Source of the DNA: DHVE2 group archaeon
GTDB taxonomy: Archaea > Thermoplasmatota > Thermoplasmata > Thermoplasmatales > Aciduliprofundaceae
Assembly (NCBI GenBank): GCA_015520975.1
Contig: WAOZ01000007.1
Span: forward strand, 1 to 29,748
Direction: 5' to 3'
DNA: 29,748 bases
In this document: piece after piece, positions 3,841-9,501 of the stretch
How the letters are laid out: the number at the start of each line of letters is the position of its first letter
Numbering within the stretch: the stretch's first letter is position 1
Notes under the pieces: generated by a model
The model's input: only the letters and a program-made list of their open reading frames with translations
Database searches by the model: none
Told to the model about the DNA's origin: nothing
Position numbers and translations under genes: made by a program

Positions 3841-4887
3841 ATGGTTGGAATAGTTACATACGGCAGCTATATACCTGTGTACAGAATAAAAAGTGAGGAA
3901 ATAGCAAGGATGTGGGGTGACCGGGAGGATTACCCTGCGAAAGGCCTAAAGATTCTGAGCAAATCCGTTCCCGCATACGATGAGGATGCAGCCACAATTG
4001 CTGTTGAAGCGACGAGAAACGCGCTTCGAAGGAAGCACATACCCGGTGAGAAGATAGGTGCTATATTTGTGGGAAGCGAATCACATCCTTACGCAGTTAA
4101 GCCCACGGCATCGCTTCTCGCGGAAGTTTTCGGTGCTTATAATGCACATGCAGCGGATCTTGAGTTTGCGTGTAAAGCCGGTACTGCTGCGATGCAGATT
4201 GTTTACAGCATGGTGAAAGCCGGAATGATAGAGTACGGACTTGCGGTGGGCACCGACACCTCCCAGGGCCAGCCCGGTGATGCACTTGATTATTCTGCAT
4301 CTGCCGGTGGTACGGCGTATATAATTGGAGACAGAGATGTTATTGCTGAGATCAATCACACGGTATCTTTTGTTACTGACACGCCCGATTTCTGGCGCAG
4401 AGAGGGACAGAGATACCCGTCACACGGTGGCAGATTCACAGGAGAACCAGCATATTTCAAGCATGTTATGACCGCCGCTAGAATGTTGATGTCCAAGGCT
4501 GGAACAGAGCCCAAAGATTACGATTATGTAGTATTTCATCAGCCAAACGGTAAATTTCCGCTTCGTGTGGGTAAGCGTTTGGGTTTCACAAAGGAACAGA
4601 TAGAACCGGGATTGCTGACGCCGTATATTGGAAACACATACTCGGGTGCCACGCCAACTGGATTGTCTGCGGTGCTGGATATTGCAAAACCGGGTGACAG
4701 AATCCTTGCAGTATCGTTTGGCAGTGGTGCGGGTAGTGATGCTTTTGACATCACCGTTACTGATGAGATTGAGAAGTTCAATCGTGATGCAGCACCAACC
4801 GTGCGTAAAATGATAGAGCATGCAAGGTATGTGGACTATGCGACATATCTCAAATTCAGACGTATGATAGTGGAGGTGGATGAATGA
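3841..4887 (+). CDS. Hydroxymethylglutaryl-CoA synthase (archaeal type)
   Basis: Motifs [23 protein letters not shown] (catalytic Cys), HQPNGKFP and IGNTYSG. First gene of the known archaeal HMGCS-thiolase-DUF35 cluster. Confidence 0.95.
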
Positions 4888-6050
4888 GGGAAGTGGCTAT
4901 AATCGGCGCTGGTGAAACCAAATACGGTGAGCACTGGGAAAAATCTCTCCGAGACCTTGCTGTGGAAGCGGGATTGAAGGCTATAGAGGATTCCAATATT
5001 TATGCCGAAGATATTCAGGCTATTTTCGGAGGAAACATGAGCGCTGGAAGTTTCGTAGGTCAGGATCATGTTGGCGCGCTGATAGCTGATTTTGCAGGAC
5101 TGGCAGAAACCAAAATACCTGCGATGCGCGTTGAAGCAGCATGTGCAAGTGGCGCAGCCGCACTTCATGCGGGATACTTGGCGGTTGCGTCAGGTATGTA
5201 CGATCTGGTACTGGTTGGCGGCGTGGAAAAAATGACAGATTTGCCCGGGAACATGGCCACGGATATACTCGCAGGTGCCGCGGACAGAGAGTGGGAAGTG
5301 TTCTTGGGTGCGACATTCCCTGCGCTGGGAGCCATGATGGCCAGAAGATATATGCACGAATACGGTTTAAAAATCGAGCAGCTTGCATTGTTGCCCGTGA
5401 TAGCGCACGAGCACGGTAGCAGAAACCCCGACGCTCATTTGAGAAACAAGATAACAGTGGATACCGTATTGAACGCGCCCATGGTGGCGGATCCTTTAAC
5501 AATCATGCACTGTTCTCCCGTTAGCGATGGCGCGGCGGCTGTGGTGCTTGCACCTGCGGAACTGGCTAAAAAATACACGGATGCACCCATTAAGATTTCC
5601 GCATCGGCGGTGGCCAACGATTACATCTCCCTGCATTCTAGACCCTCTCTGACTACGCAGGTGGCCACTGTGGAGGCTGGAAAAAGGGCATACAAGATGG
5701 CCAATAAAGAACCCAAAGACATAGATTTTGTTGAACTGCACGATGCGTTTTCAATAATCGCGCTGGAAGCCCTGGAAGATCTGGGCTTTGCCAAAAAAGG
5801 AGAGGGCATAAAACTCGCAGAGGAAGGCGAACTCAATCTGGGTGGCAAGTTACCGTACAATCCTTCTGGAGGTTTGAAGGCCAAGGGCCATCCCGTGGGA
5901 GCCACAGGCGTTGGACAGGTTGTGGAAATTGTGAAGCAGTTGAGAAACGAAGCGGAAGGAAGACAGGTTGACGGCGCAGAGGTTGCACTTGCTCACAATG
6001 TCGGTGGCACAGCGACCACGACAGTTGTTCACATACTGGAGGTGATGTGA
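4884..6050 (+). CDS. Acetoacetyl-CoA thiolase (acetyl-CoA C-acetyltransferase)
   Basis: Motifs VEAACASG (Cys), VELHDAF and [14 protein letters not shown] (His). ATGA overlap with HMG-CoA synthase. Confidence 0.95.
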
Positions 6051-6051
6051 T

Positions 6052-6468
6052 ATGGTGGTACCCCGTTTCTGGAGAGAGAGAAGACACAGATATAATCTGA
6101 TTGGCACAAAATGCCCCGTATGCAACACGGTTTATTTCCCTCCGCGTAATGTCTGTCCCAAATGCGGTAGAGATAGCGTTGGCAAGATGGAAGAATTCGC
6201 ACTAAGCGGAAAGGGCAAAATATATTCCTACACCGTGGTACATCAGAATGTGCTGGGCTATAAATACCAGAAACCGTACATTATGGCGATTGTTGAGACC
6301 TCCGAGGGACCGAAACTCACGGCGCAGATTGTTGATGTTGATCCAGAGGAAGTCTACATAGGAATGCCCGTCCGCGCGGTTTTCAGGAGAATAAGCGAAG
6401 ACGGCAAAGCAGGCATAATCCAGTATGGTTACAAATTTGTGCCAGACTGGGATGCGCTTGACAAATGA
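6052..6468 (+). CDS. DUF35 Zn-ribbon/OB-fold scaffold protein of the thiolase-HMG-CoA synthase complex
   Basis: CPVC...FPPRNVCPKC Zn ribbon, G.IYSYTVVH and an OB-fold C-terminus ending YGYKF. Directly follows the thiolase. Confidence 0.93.
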   Translation: MVVPRFWRERRHRYNLIGTKCPVCNTVYFPPRNVCPKCGRDSVGKMEEFALSGKGKIYSYTVVHQNVLGYKYQKPYIMAIVETSEGPKLTAQIVDVDPEEVYIGMPVRAVFRRISEDGKAGIIQYGYKFVPDWDALDK

Positions 6469-6475
6469 ACTGCGC

Positions 6476-6494
6476 AAAAATTTTTATATTTATT
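6476..6494 (+). promoter_or_regulatory. Putative BRE/TATA box for a leaderless transcript starting near 6511
   Basis: aaaaatttttatatttatt lies about 25 nt upstream of ATG 6511, with no RBS. The T-run may also serve as terminator for the upstream operon. Confidence 0.45.
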
Positions 6495-6510
6495 CGTAAA
6501 TTAACTTTTT

Positions 6511-7166
6511 ATGCTTGATATAATCGGTTTGCTGCTTGCGCTGGGAGGTGCAGGGATTTATGGTCTGTATGTTTTCATGGTGTCCAGAGAATACAATGTG
6601 GACTCTTCAAAAACCAGTGTGTTTATAAGTATAGGATTCACAGGTTTTGTGTACACACTGCTTATCTATATTCTGGCAATAGCTAACAAAGATTACATTC
6701 CCAAGATATACGTGACTGGCTCGTGTTATCCATGGGTCTGGTAACAATGGGAGTAGCAATAGGAAGAGTATTTTTTGTAAAGAAAGCTCTGTGCCATCTG
6801 AGCGATAACAAATATTTTTTCAGTAAAATGACCATTTATCTGAACAATCCTGAGACTTTTATGATATACACCCTAATGATGAGTGTACTCGCTGTACAAT
6901 ATTTTGAACAGCCTGAACAGGCAGATTTCATATCATCCGCATCCGTTATCGTGCCCGGGATTTTAACAATGGCGGCATTCGCTTTTATCGGCGGTTTGGT
7001 GTATGGCATTCTTATGCGTTCTGCATTAAGCAGGTCGGATGAGGATGGAATCCCATATCCCAAGGATTTTAAAAGGCACCTTCTTTTTATCTCTCCCGGT
7101 TTAGCAGTGGGTGTGATTGGAGTGCTGCTCGGATTGCTCATCTACGCTGGGGCAATATCTATTTAA
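6511..7166 (+). pseudogene. Frameshift-split membrane protein (ORFs 6511-6744 and 6723-7166) resembling a triplicated A/V-type ATPase proteolipid (subunit c/K)
   Basis: The two ORFs overlap in frames +1 and +3; adding one base near 6723 joins them into about 218 aa with about six hydrophobic helices. The middle hairpin GSVLSMGLVTMGVAIGRVFFVKKALCHLSDNKYFFSKMTIYLNNPETFMIYTLMMSVL resembles the NtpK hairpin with its PET carboxylate. May be a real pseudogene or a sequencing error. Confidence 0.55.
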
Positions 7167-7206
7167 AGTTTTTGGAACATTTTTATCTATTTCTTTTTCA
7201 AATCCG

Positions 7207-7244
7207 TTTAAATTTAAATTAACAGTTAAGATTGATTGAGGTGA
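7207..7244 (+). promoter_or_regulatory. TATA-like element and RBS for the 749-aa repeat protein
   Basis: tttaaatttaaatt at about 7207-7220. GAGGTGA at 7238-7244, 7 nt before ATG 7252. Confidence 0.55.
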
Positions 7245-7251
7245 TGCAAAT

Positions 7252-9501
7252 ATGAATGGAAGGGCAAAAAAGATAGTGATGGTGGCGATGGTCGTGGTGC
7301 TCGTGGTGAGCTCTCTTGCCATTCTCGCCGCCATCAGAAAAACCATGGAAGCGGAAAACCCGACACAGGTAATTAAGACTGCGCTGGATGTTAAGAACCC
7401 GGTCTCGGTTATTGATAAAAACGGAGATGGGAAAGCTGATTACGCAGAGAACCTGAATGTTGACGCAAGCGAGAGTGAGGCGCAGGCGCTTGTAGATACC
7501 AACTCAGACGGCACACCGGATTCTTTAGAGACTGCGGAAAGTAATGCGATTTATGTGAACATAGACAACAGCACAAAAGCGCTCTCCGCATCTGAATTTT
7601 CGTCGAAATCAAAGGCTGCCAATGTCTCCGATAATGGCAATGAAACGCTGGTCAATCCGCCGAATATGCTGGATATGCGTGCGCTTGGAGATGTTTTTCC
7701 GGGTTATGCTGATCAGATAGCAATGAGCGTGAAGGAGCACAGAGGTATGATAAACATAGTGCATTTCATTCGCAGGGCTGCCTATGATTTACCCAAACCC
7801 GATATGGCATGGATAAGGGAGAATGTGCAGGTGGCCAAGAGAATAGATCCCCATATGTATTTCGGTGAGGATGGCTTTAATGGCACATCTTACAATTACA
7901 CGGCGATAAGGCATATTGAGAGAGTGGATAAAAACCACGATGGCAACCCCGAGTTTTTCAAAGAGGTCACATACTCAAACCTCACGCAGGATCTGAACGG
8001 TGATGGCACGCCGCAGATTATAATAATTCACTATTCGCTGAGAGTATATTACGACAACGATAGCGACGGCAACCCAGAATATGGAAGATGGATAAAGGTA
8101 TTTGCGTATCTTGTGGATGAAAACGAGGATGGATACTATGAAAAGAAAGTTGTGCTGGCCACGGGAGGCGAGTACAGAGATGATAACAGCGACGGCAACA
8201 GAGAGGTATTCAAGGCGTTTGCGATAGGCAACCAGACCGTTGATATGAACGAGAACAAAAAGTACGAGTTCCATCTGATTATGAAGGGCTTTGTGGTCAA
8301 ATATGATAACAATAGTAATGGAAATCCCGAAGAGGTGAAGGCATTTTTCGGGGTCAGGGCGATACTCAACGAAAATGAGGATGAATATCCAGAGTATGAC
8401 GGTGTAAGTGTAACCGGATACATTCTGACCGATGCTAACGATGACGGCAACCCCGAGAACGAAAAATTCGTGCACTGGCGCTATGCAAAGGCGGATGAAA
8501 ACAGCAACGGCAAATATGAGGATGTCAGAGGTCTGGCGGCATATGCAACATACTACGATAACAACAGCGACGGCAATCCAGAATACGAAATATGTGCTCT
8601 TAAAGGTATATCTTACAGAGATGTGAACGAGAACGGAGTACCCGAGAACGGGGCGCGCGGATTTGCCTACTGCAAAGTCAGAGACGAGAACGACGATGGA
8701 CACAACGAATCGGTGCTGTTCCGCCTTGCGTTCGTGAACGGCACGGACAACGACGAGAACAGTGTTTATGAGATTGCGAGAAAGATGTACATATCTTACA
8801 CCTGCTACGACAACAACAGTGACGGCAACCCGGAATACCGGGATTTCCTGGCAGCTGGCTGGTTTGTCAGGGATACAAATCAGGATAAAGACTGGGAACA
8901 CGCGGGCATACTCTATATGCATTTCCTGATGCGTGATAATAACAGCGACGGCAACCCGGAAGTGCTCACGAGCAGAATATTTTACAGGGAGGTCTGGGAC
9001 GAAAATCAGGATGGCATTTACGAGCATGAGCGGGGAATGGCCGAGATCGGCTGGAGATTCGATAACAACAGCAACGGAGTATTTGAGAAGGGAGAACTGA
9101 AACTTTTCGGCTACTCCGCATACAGAAACTCAACCACGAACAATATCACCCACATAACACTCGTGGTGATTCTCGGCAATTTCACCAACAGCAACGACAC
9201 AGGATTCAACGAGTGGGAAAATTACACGAAGTTCGTCGTGGTTAAAGACGACGCCGATGGAGACGGAAACCCCGAGTATGTGCATGTGTGGGTGCTGAAG
9301 CATCAGCAATTCGTGAACGAAACGGGACTGGTGAACATTACCATACGGGGTGTGTACTGGTATGTTGACAACAACGACAACGGTCTCAGAGACCAGTGGA
9401 TGATAAAAGGTGTGAAGATAATACGCATAGACACGAATATGGATGGTATCTGGGACGAGGAAACGGAAACAACCATTTATCGCACGGGCTCGGATGAATG
9501 A
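7252..9501 (+). CDS. Secreted or N-terminally anchored acidic repeat protein with about 25 Dx[DN]xDG-type putative Ca2+-binding loops; function unknown
   Basis: Basic-then-hydrophobic N-terminus (MNGRAKKIVMVAMVVVLVVSSLAILAA), a good RBS, and no C-terminal anchor. Loops such as DNNSDGNPE and DENEDGYYE alternate with 12-residue beta-like segments. Confidence 0.85.
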   Translation: MNGRAKKIVMVAMVVVLVVSSLAILAAIRKTMEAENPTQVIKTALDVKNPVSVIDKNGDGKADYAENLNVDASESEAQALVDTNSDGTPDSLETAESNAIYVNIDNSTKALSASEFSSKSKAANVSDNGNETLVNPPNMLDMRALGDVFPGYADQIAMSVKEHRGMINIVHFIRRAAYDLPKPDMAWIRENVQVAKRIDPHMYFGEDGFNGTSYNYTAIRHIERVDKNHDGNPEFFKEVTYSNLTQDLNGDGTPQIIIIHYSLRVYYDNDSDGNPEYGRWIKVFAYLVDENEDGYYEKKVVLATGGEYRDDNSDGNREVFKAFAIGNQTVDMNENKKYEFHLIMKGFVVKYDNNSNGNPEEVKAFFGVRAILNENEDEYPEYDGVSVTGYILTDANDDGNPENEKFVHWRYAKADENSNGKYEDVRGLAAYATYYDNNSDGNPEYEICALKGISYRDVNENGVPENGARGFAYCKVRDENDDGHNESVLFRLAFVNGTDNDENSVYEIARKMYISYTCYDNNSDGNPEYRDFLAAGWFVRDTNQDKDWEHAGILYMHFLMRDNNSDGNPEVLTSRIFYREVWDENQDGIYEHERGMAEIGWRFDNNSNGVFEKGELKLFGYSAYRNSTTNNITHITLVVILGNFTNSNDTGFNEWENYTKFVVVKDDADGDGNPEYVHVWVLKHQQFVNETGLVNITIRGVYWYVDNNDNGLRDQWMIKGVKIIRIDTNMDGIWDEETETTIYRTGSDE
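7927..9123 (+). repeat. 19 tandem 63-bp (21-codon) degenerate repeat units
   Basis: The first loop Asp codon is at 7927 (DKNHDGNPE) and the last at 9061 (DNNSNGVFE). The difference, 1134 bp, equals 18 x 63, and every intermediate loop is spaced exactly 21 aa apart. The DNA motif aacagcgacggcaac recurs. Confidence 0.9.

Follow-up and report, generated by a model that had tools for sequence, protein, structure and literature searches.

The window, by which we mean the whole 29,748-nucleotide stretch of DNA that was analysed, carries at positions 6511-7166 of the plus strand a gene for a small membrane protein, which is called the orphan below. The gene appears in the window as two overlapping open reading frames, ORF 1 (6511-6744, frame 1, 77 amino acids) and ORF 2 (frame 3, open from 6687, with the first start codon at 6723 and the end at 7166). 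Joining the two frames into a single protein of 218 amino acids requires one extra base: the window reads 'attcccaagat', with CCC in the place where CCCC is needed ('att ccc caa gat'). The features of the locus are listed in Table 1.

Table 1. Features of the orphan proteolipid-like gene and its flanks (positions in the window)
Positions	Strand	Feature	Basis
6476..6494	+	Putative archaeal promoter approximately 20-30 nt 5' of the ATG: BRE-like 'aaaa' (purine-rich), then TATA-like 'atttttatatttatt'	Sequence; similar elements in homologues
6511..6702	+	Codons 1-64 (frame 1), the 5' part of the gene, with hairpin 1 (helices 1, 2) and near-invariant Tyr48 at 6652-6654	Sequence, alignment, model
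6700..6702	+	C-run one C short (CCC instead of CCCC), source of the apparent frameshift	Vent-run contigs, homologue readthrough
6703..6917	+	Hairpin 2, residues 65-136, frame 3, c-subunit-like; Gly85-Arg86 at 6762-6767 (helix 3), Pro114-Glu115-Thr116 at 6849-6857 (helix 4)	PF00137, hhalign, hmmsearch
6918..7163	+	Hairpin 3, residues 137-218, c-subunit-like, Leu198 at the carboxylate position; Gly166 and Gly204 conserved	hhalign, PF00137 in the L018 homologue, alignment
7164..7166	+	Stop codon TAA	Sequence
7167..7200	+	T-rich tract past the stop ('agtttttggaacatttttatctatttctttttc'), possible oligo-T archaeal terminator	Sequence only, inferred

The additional C was found behind position 6699 in the contigs of all four public hydrothermal-vent metagenome runs (from three studies) that were compared over 6400-7300, and it was the sole difference in length between these contigs and the window in that interval. 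Four homologues obtained by a search with ORF 2 (P0001-P0004; 99, 86, 79 and 78% identical) are intact proteins of 212-218 amino acids, which cross the junction without a break (...NKDYIPQDIRDWLV...) and give IPQDIRDW there. Since the vent-run contigs carry the C and the homologues are unbroken, the frame break is an assembly error or a rare variant or allele, and the natural gene encodes 218 amino acids. The original prediction, made from the letters of the window, had already joined the frames and read three helical hairpins from them; all peptides that it quoted are present, and the joined reading agrees with the intact homologues and with the predicted structure (see below). A second deviation was seen at 6728, where the window has A and all four public runs have T, which changes Leu to Phe, the residue present in the homologues. 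The T at 6728 and the C missing at 6700-6702 suggest local consensus errors in the assembly, or a minor strain.

The promoter-like element upstream of the gene has counterparts in the family: an A-rich or TTTTAT-like element approximately 20-35 nt 5' of the start codon was recognized, by eye and unscored, in most of the 22 members inspected. The position of the BRE/TATA-like element would imply a leaderless mRNA, or one with a very short leader, and fits independent transcription; a promoter of its own had been suggested for the gene in the original prediction. The prediction that there are no ATPase genes nearby also held, since a Pfam scan of the 20 larger ORFs of the 29.7-kb window detected none, and none adjoined the homologues in the neighbourhoods examined. 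The genes on the 5' side, on the same strand, encode an HMG-CoA synthase, a thiolase and a DUF35 protein, and a Ca-repeat surface protein is encoded on the 3' side. Synteny was seen only between close relatives in genus g2 (LeuRS, a glycosyltransferase, LPG_synthase_TM, DUF2070 and DUF72); beyond close relatives there were no conserved neighbours, and nothing was kept in f21, which is another family. A functional assignment based on an operon was rejected, because the neighbours are conserved in close relatives only. A family member occupies the equivalent slot 3' of the HMG-CoA synthase, thiolase and DUF35 genes in a genome from a different genus (L020:1207-4469, G015:C118; the comparison was with positions 3841-7166 of the window). 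These three flanking gene products are 82-86% identical to those of the window, whereas the orphan is just 26% identical, a difference that points either to an unusually rapid divergence of the orphan or to a fixed site at which one paralogue has taken the place of another.

The similarity of the orphan to the proteolipid (c or K) subunits of rotary ATPases was evaluated with several profile methods. Pfam family PF00137 (ATP-synt_C) matched hairpin 2 of the window ORF with an E-value of 1e-4 and with scores (22.6-23.0 bits in hmmscan, 25.4 bits in a six-frame search of the genome) lying around the gathering cut-off of 24 bits; P0001 scored 18.9 bits. The same family matched 13 of the 23 members of alignment A2 at E<=0.1 (best E-value 2.3e-7), on hairpin 3 in the L018 homologue, and a precomputed PF00137 match is on record for the f21 members. 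NCBIfam model NF004913, which describes triple-hairpin K subunits, covered residues 13-211 with an E-value of 7e-6 and 25.4 bits, below its equivalog cut-off of 211, and the K equivalog model NF011483 scored 13.6 bits, below its cut-off of 188. When the family profile was compared with the PDB, the best matches were the c'' subunits of V-ATPases (E 5e-6 to 1e-5; PDB 7UW9, 6M0R and 5TJ5), which aligned over hairpins 2 and 3 with the Glu of the family on the Glu of the first c'' hairpin, followed by the Thermus thermophilus K subunit. The profile also matched the multi-hairpin K proteins of related archaea, down to approximately E 1e-12.

The three hairpins are not equally close to the canonical ones. 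In hhalign comparisons with the hairpins of the canonical K subunits of the lineage (described below), hairpin 2 was aligned with a probability of 96.2% (E 2.7e-9) and hairpin 3 with 94.1% (E 1.3e-7), hairpin 1 with just 19% (E 0.0012). Within the protein, hairpins 2 and 3 matched each other with 92% and hairpins 1 and 2 with 77% probability, and in hmmsearch, profiles of the single hairpins built from alignment A3 (33 sequences) reached up to 25.6, 50.7 and 34.9 bits against K hairpins for hairpins 1, 2 and 3, respectively. All three hairpins are homologous to the proteolipid hairpins of A/V-type ATPases, hairpin 1 being the most diverged, and the original identification of a triplicated c-subunit-like protein is borne out. 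Glu115 ('NPET', helix 4) is the sole Glu that occupies a carboxylate position; it hardly varies across the family and falls on the Glu of K, NtpK and c'' in the alignments of hairpin 2. The equivalent residues are Phe43 in hairpin 1 and Leu198 in hairpin 3, with Gln, His, Met, Val or Ala at the latter position in other subfamilies. The distribution of the carboxylates is therefore as originally described, with a c-subunit-like hairpin 2 that has the PET glutamate between two c-like hairpins that lack it. Pfam and PDB profile searches gave no similarity to channel families above chance. The designed helical-repeat proteins that were the sole PDB profile matches obtained from four close homologues were taken as spurious. 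In the ESM Atlas no neighbour was informative (best score 0.76), and PADLOC and PHROGs gave no match for five family members.

An AlphaFold2 model computed from the 23-sequence alignment A2 has six helices in three hairpins (pLDDT 93.2, pTM 0.89); the model made from the four close homologues alone was unusable (pLDDT 49). The hairpin fold of the model superposes on solved c and K subunits. In VIA-align the best natural folds were the yeast c subunit (Z 13.2, rmsd 2.8 A over 142 residues), the double-hairpin, Na+-binding NtpK of the Enterococcus hirae V-type ATPase (PDB 2BL2; Z 12.3, rmsd 3.0 A over 144 residues), c'' (Z 12.0) and the c1 subunit of Acetobacterium woodii (PDB 4BEM_J; Z 10.2); the best match of the entire six-helix array was a designed flat helix-turn-helix repeat (Z 14.3). 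Foldseek placed proteolipids in all the top ranks, with NtpK first, though the E-values (0.008-0.1) are modest. Five independent profile and fold methods agree, and the resemblance to c subunits clearly exceeds chance.

Relatives of the orphan form a patchily distributed family of the Thermoplasmatota, with proteins of approximately 200-250 amino acids and without an established name; the source annotation of one member is 'hypothetical protein [Thermoplasmata archaeon]'. Among 1.84 billion sequences, 12 representatives were found at E<=1e-3, and relatives with 22-33% identity were present in 13 of 61 related genomes. The genome of the window itself has a second paralogue (G000:C5:993-1625); two paralogues per genome are common, and in G020 they form a tandem pair. 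A profile search of 301 genomes of the class identified orphans of approximately 240-270 amino acids in f21 (E 1e-22 to 1e-13) and in f24, and sporadic further members were found in f50 and f72 in a sample of the phylum. A search for related loci in genome contigs found no relative. The family tree left the relationships between subfamilies unresolved. For unsaturated pairs dN/dS was 0.10-0.24, and the family is under purifying selection. These values bear on the possibility that the locus is a decaying pseudogene or an assembly artefact whose resemblance to c subunits is due to chance. The window copy is indeed frameshifted, and its single-sequence Pfam score is slightly below the cut-off, but the contigs of the four vent runs are free of the frameshift, homologues are intact in many genomes, dN/dS is low, and the five methods converge on proteolipid homology. 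We regard this possibility as largely refuted and hardly credible.

Two weak matches, G044:C1:1287975-1288277 (E 6e-6) and G032:C41:43978-44289 (E 3e-5), cover residues ~32-137 with 29-30% identity. Both are in genomes of Thermoplasma size, each within a 178-amino-acid frame that has one in-frame stop, and they may be decayed or recoded distant relatives.

In alignment A3 the near-invariant residues are Tyr48 (helix 2), Gly85 (helix 3), Glu115 and Ile119 (helix 4), Gly166 and Gly204. Position 86 is occupied by Arg in 29 and by Lys in two of the 33 sequences, the exceptions being a Tyr in one paralogue, which has Gln for Glu115 as well, and a Glu in one distant member (L049). The signature of the family can be written as N-x-G-R (helix 3) ... 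E-[T/P/N]-x-x-I (helix 4). Mapping placed the best conserved residues, Tyr48, Gly85-Arg86 and Glu115, all on one former ion site. In the tandem pair L019:3654-4286 and L019:4350-4967 (G020:C125), the second copy has Arg replaced by Tyr and Glu by Gln, the sole coupled double loss seen in the family.

The ion site of E. hirae NtpK is formed by Gln110 and Glu139 together with Thr64, Gln65 and Leu61 of helix 2 (PMC2359735), and the K subunit of the genome studied here matches NtpK residue for residue, its Gln corresponding to Gln110 and its Glu to Glu139. The geometry of the orphan site is NtpK-like, with a helix 3 residue 29 positions ahead of the helix 4 Glu and with a Thr/Tyr contribution from helix 2; the orphan differs in having Arg86 in the place of Gln110 and in its extra N-terminal hairpin. 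Several observations bear on the equivalence of Arg86 and the liganding Gln. The hhalign alignment pairs the IGR of the family with the canonical IGQ, with low per-column confidence there. The spacing between Arg86 and Glu115 is 29 residues; Gln and Glu are equally far apart in NtpK and in the two complete hairpins of the K encoded by this genome. The model has Arg86 14 residues ahead of the hairpin turn and Glu115 15 residues past it, which puts the two at equal membrane depth, and Tyr48 corresponds to the canonical Tyr of the preceding outer helix, five residues past the carboxylate position. From the alignment, the spacing and the equal depth we infer that Arg86 substitutes for the ion-liganding Gln and that its guanidinium fills the former ion pocket, paired with Glu115. 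At the sequence level the orphan is without the free Gln/Glu pair of ion ligands, the Gln position being Arg86. The single retained carboxylate is thus probably neutralised by the conserved Arg, and the protein is probably a non-translocating derivative. The Arg was not mentioned in the original prediction, nor were the assembly error behind the frameshift and the multi-hairpin canonical K of the lineage. In the literature searched we found no account of proteolipid paralogues encoded apart from the ATPase genes, and none of an ion site with an Arg.

These features can be accommodated in a reading to which we give about even chances, namely that the orphan is a structural, self-assembling proteolipid paralogue with an arginine-plugged ion site, which does not shuttle ions. 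The locus encodes an intact six-transmembrane K/c paralogue of 218 amino acids with three c-type hairpins, which lies outside the ATPase operon and would be transcribed alone. With Arg86 at the position of the liganding Gln (IGQG), at the same depth as Glu115, and with Tyr48 contributed by the neighbouring outer helix, the guanidinium would act as a tethered cation in the former Na+/H+ pocket and neutralise Glu115, and a site plugged in this way would not support ion shuttling. The packing of c subunits, with Gly-rich inner helices (1, 3 and 5) and outer helices (2, 4 and 6), would be retained, and the hairpins could form a structural sheet or ring in the membrane. Self-assembly, or co-assembly with a paralogue, would be most likely, over completion of an ATPase rotor. 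As to the three roles suggested in the original prediction, Arg86, as read from the alignments, argues against an ion leak and against an alternative rotor and is compatible with a scaffold. If the Arg plug is real, an Arg86 to Gln replacement is expected to restore Na+ or DCCD reactivity.

Strong conservation of Arg, Glu and Tyr could also mean a working site instead of a plugged one. Protons or ions might pass or be sensed at the triad, or it might hold a small anion or a lipid head group, and the protein would be an ATPase-independent channel, leak or sensor. The clustering of the most conserved residues of the family at one site, beyond the needs of a relic, and the occurrence of several paralogues per genome, including tandem pairs, are in line with such a function. 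On the other hand, a Glu in the membrane core would carry ions poorly if a neighbouring Arg neutralised it, no other part of the protein offers a polar pathway, with Phe (hairpin 1) and Leu or Gln (hairpin 3) at the carboxylate positions, and similarity to channel families did not rise above chance. On balance we consider a functional site of this kind improbable.

As a further point, the original prediction had asked for a separate canonical K gene, and this was found on contig C191 (G000:C191:1-551, L001), followed by atpE (PF01991) and atpC (PF01992). The start of the contig cuts this K, of which three or more hairpins are present, including two complete ones that have PET or SET motifs. 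The ATPase gene cluster of the genome is thus represented by K, E and C on C191, and the orphan is encoded outside it. In the lineage, the canonical K is a polyprotein in which a signal peptide and an N-terminal domain of approximately 110 amino acids, located outside the cytoplasm, precede several hairpins. Four hairpins (with Q, E, E and E) were found in G001 (L028) and G012, six in G004 (L027), and twelve in G193, G137 and G187 (L053-L055), in which one chain of 1118-1129 amino acids has 12 PF00137 stretches; Thermoplasma-like relatives have a single-hairpin K of 80-88 amino acids. The first hairpin of each K repeat unit has PQT for PET and IGVG for IGQG. Pfam had no match for the N-terminal domain of the 12-hairpin K, in spite of its WDFGD motif (f21). 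A ring of 12 hairpins is plausible from these sequences, since 12 = 1x12 = 2x6 = 3x4; that the 12-hairpin chain fills a whole ring is our assumption. The literature searched contained no description of a ring made from one 12-hairpin chain that is fused to an external domain. Multiplied K subunits occur in other archaea, with a triple-hairpin form in Methanococcales (NF004913) and a 13-hairpin form in Methanopyrus kandleri.

The orphan shares with the K subunits of archaeal A1Ao ATP synthases the hairpin repeats, the outer-helix pattern P-E-T ... I-Y/F ... L-L, the Gly-rich inner helices, the inferred N-out/C-out topology, the basic cytoplasmic loops and the loss of carboxylates in some hairpins. 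It differs from them in its location outside the ATPase operon, its own promoter-like element, the presence of Glu in one of three hairpins and the Arg in the place of the liganding Gln. Two other proteolipids are instructive for comparison. The V-ATPase c'' subunit (Vma16) likewise has additional transmembrane material at its N-terminus, and its one key carboxylate lies on a hairpin that is not terminal; unlike the orphan it has five helices, is a stoichiometric member of the V0 ring and is without an Arg at the site. The resemblance between the layouts of c'' and the orphan is probably convergent. The A. woodii c1 subunit, which belongs to a hybrid F/V ring and has two hairpins but a single ion site, provides a precedent for silent hairpins amid active ones; its gene is part of the atp operon, however, and at its silent site the carboxylate is simply absent, with no Arg plug.

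These comparisons raise the possibility that the orphan, like c'' or the A. woodii c1, belongs to the rotor ring of the A-ATPase as a minor subunit that does not translocate ions; it would be placed there amid the multi-hairpin K polypeptides and lower the ion/ATP ratio or help ring assembly. The homology to K across all three hairpins is consistent with this role, as are the rank of the c'' subunits as the best PDB sequence matches, the presence of the orphan mainly in those sampled lineages that have a multi-hairpin K polyprotein, and the established existence of hybrid rings that include silent hairpins (bioRxiv 10.64898/2026.10.01.756066). However, ATPase genes were absent from beside the orphan in every neighbourhood examined, its cytoplasmic loops have diverged from those of K, and its score with the K equivalog model was 25 bits against the cut-off of 211. 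Furthermore, the orphan was not found in any of five g5 and four g3 genomes searched, which belong to the window's own family and have similar K subunits, and the three genomes with a 12-hairpin K (G193, G137 and G187) also have the orphan. The coexistence with a 12-hairpin single-chain K argues against a role of the orphan as a stoichiometric ring-filler. Taking these observations together, membership in the rotor appears rather unlikely.

The orphan might also form a ring of its own that is independent of the ATPase, for example from four chains of three hairpins, giving 12 as in the single-chain K of the relatives, with the sites locked by the Arg-Glu-Tyr triad. We hold such an assembly to be unlikely; if true, it would mean that the proteolipid ring fold has been put to a new use in the cells of Thermoplasmatota, as a pore, a lipid-filled plug or a scaffold. 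Proteolipid rings are highly conserved membrane machines that have been studied nearly always as ATPase rotors. In the orphan family the c-subunit fold would have been recruited outside the ATPase operon, and a plugged pocket, as proposed in the structural reading preferred here, would be a natural 'ion-bound, locked' state of this fold. The rotor genes of the lineage are unusual as well, with 4, 6 or 12 hairpins per chain and a secreted N-terminal domain. The K hairpins on C191 (L001:3-551) have the full Na+-type ligand set, IGQG ... P/S-E-T together with T-Q on the preceding outer helix, as in NtpK, and judged from these motifs the A-ATPase of the vent archaeon represented by the window may be Na+-coupled.
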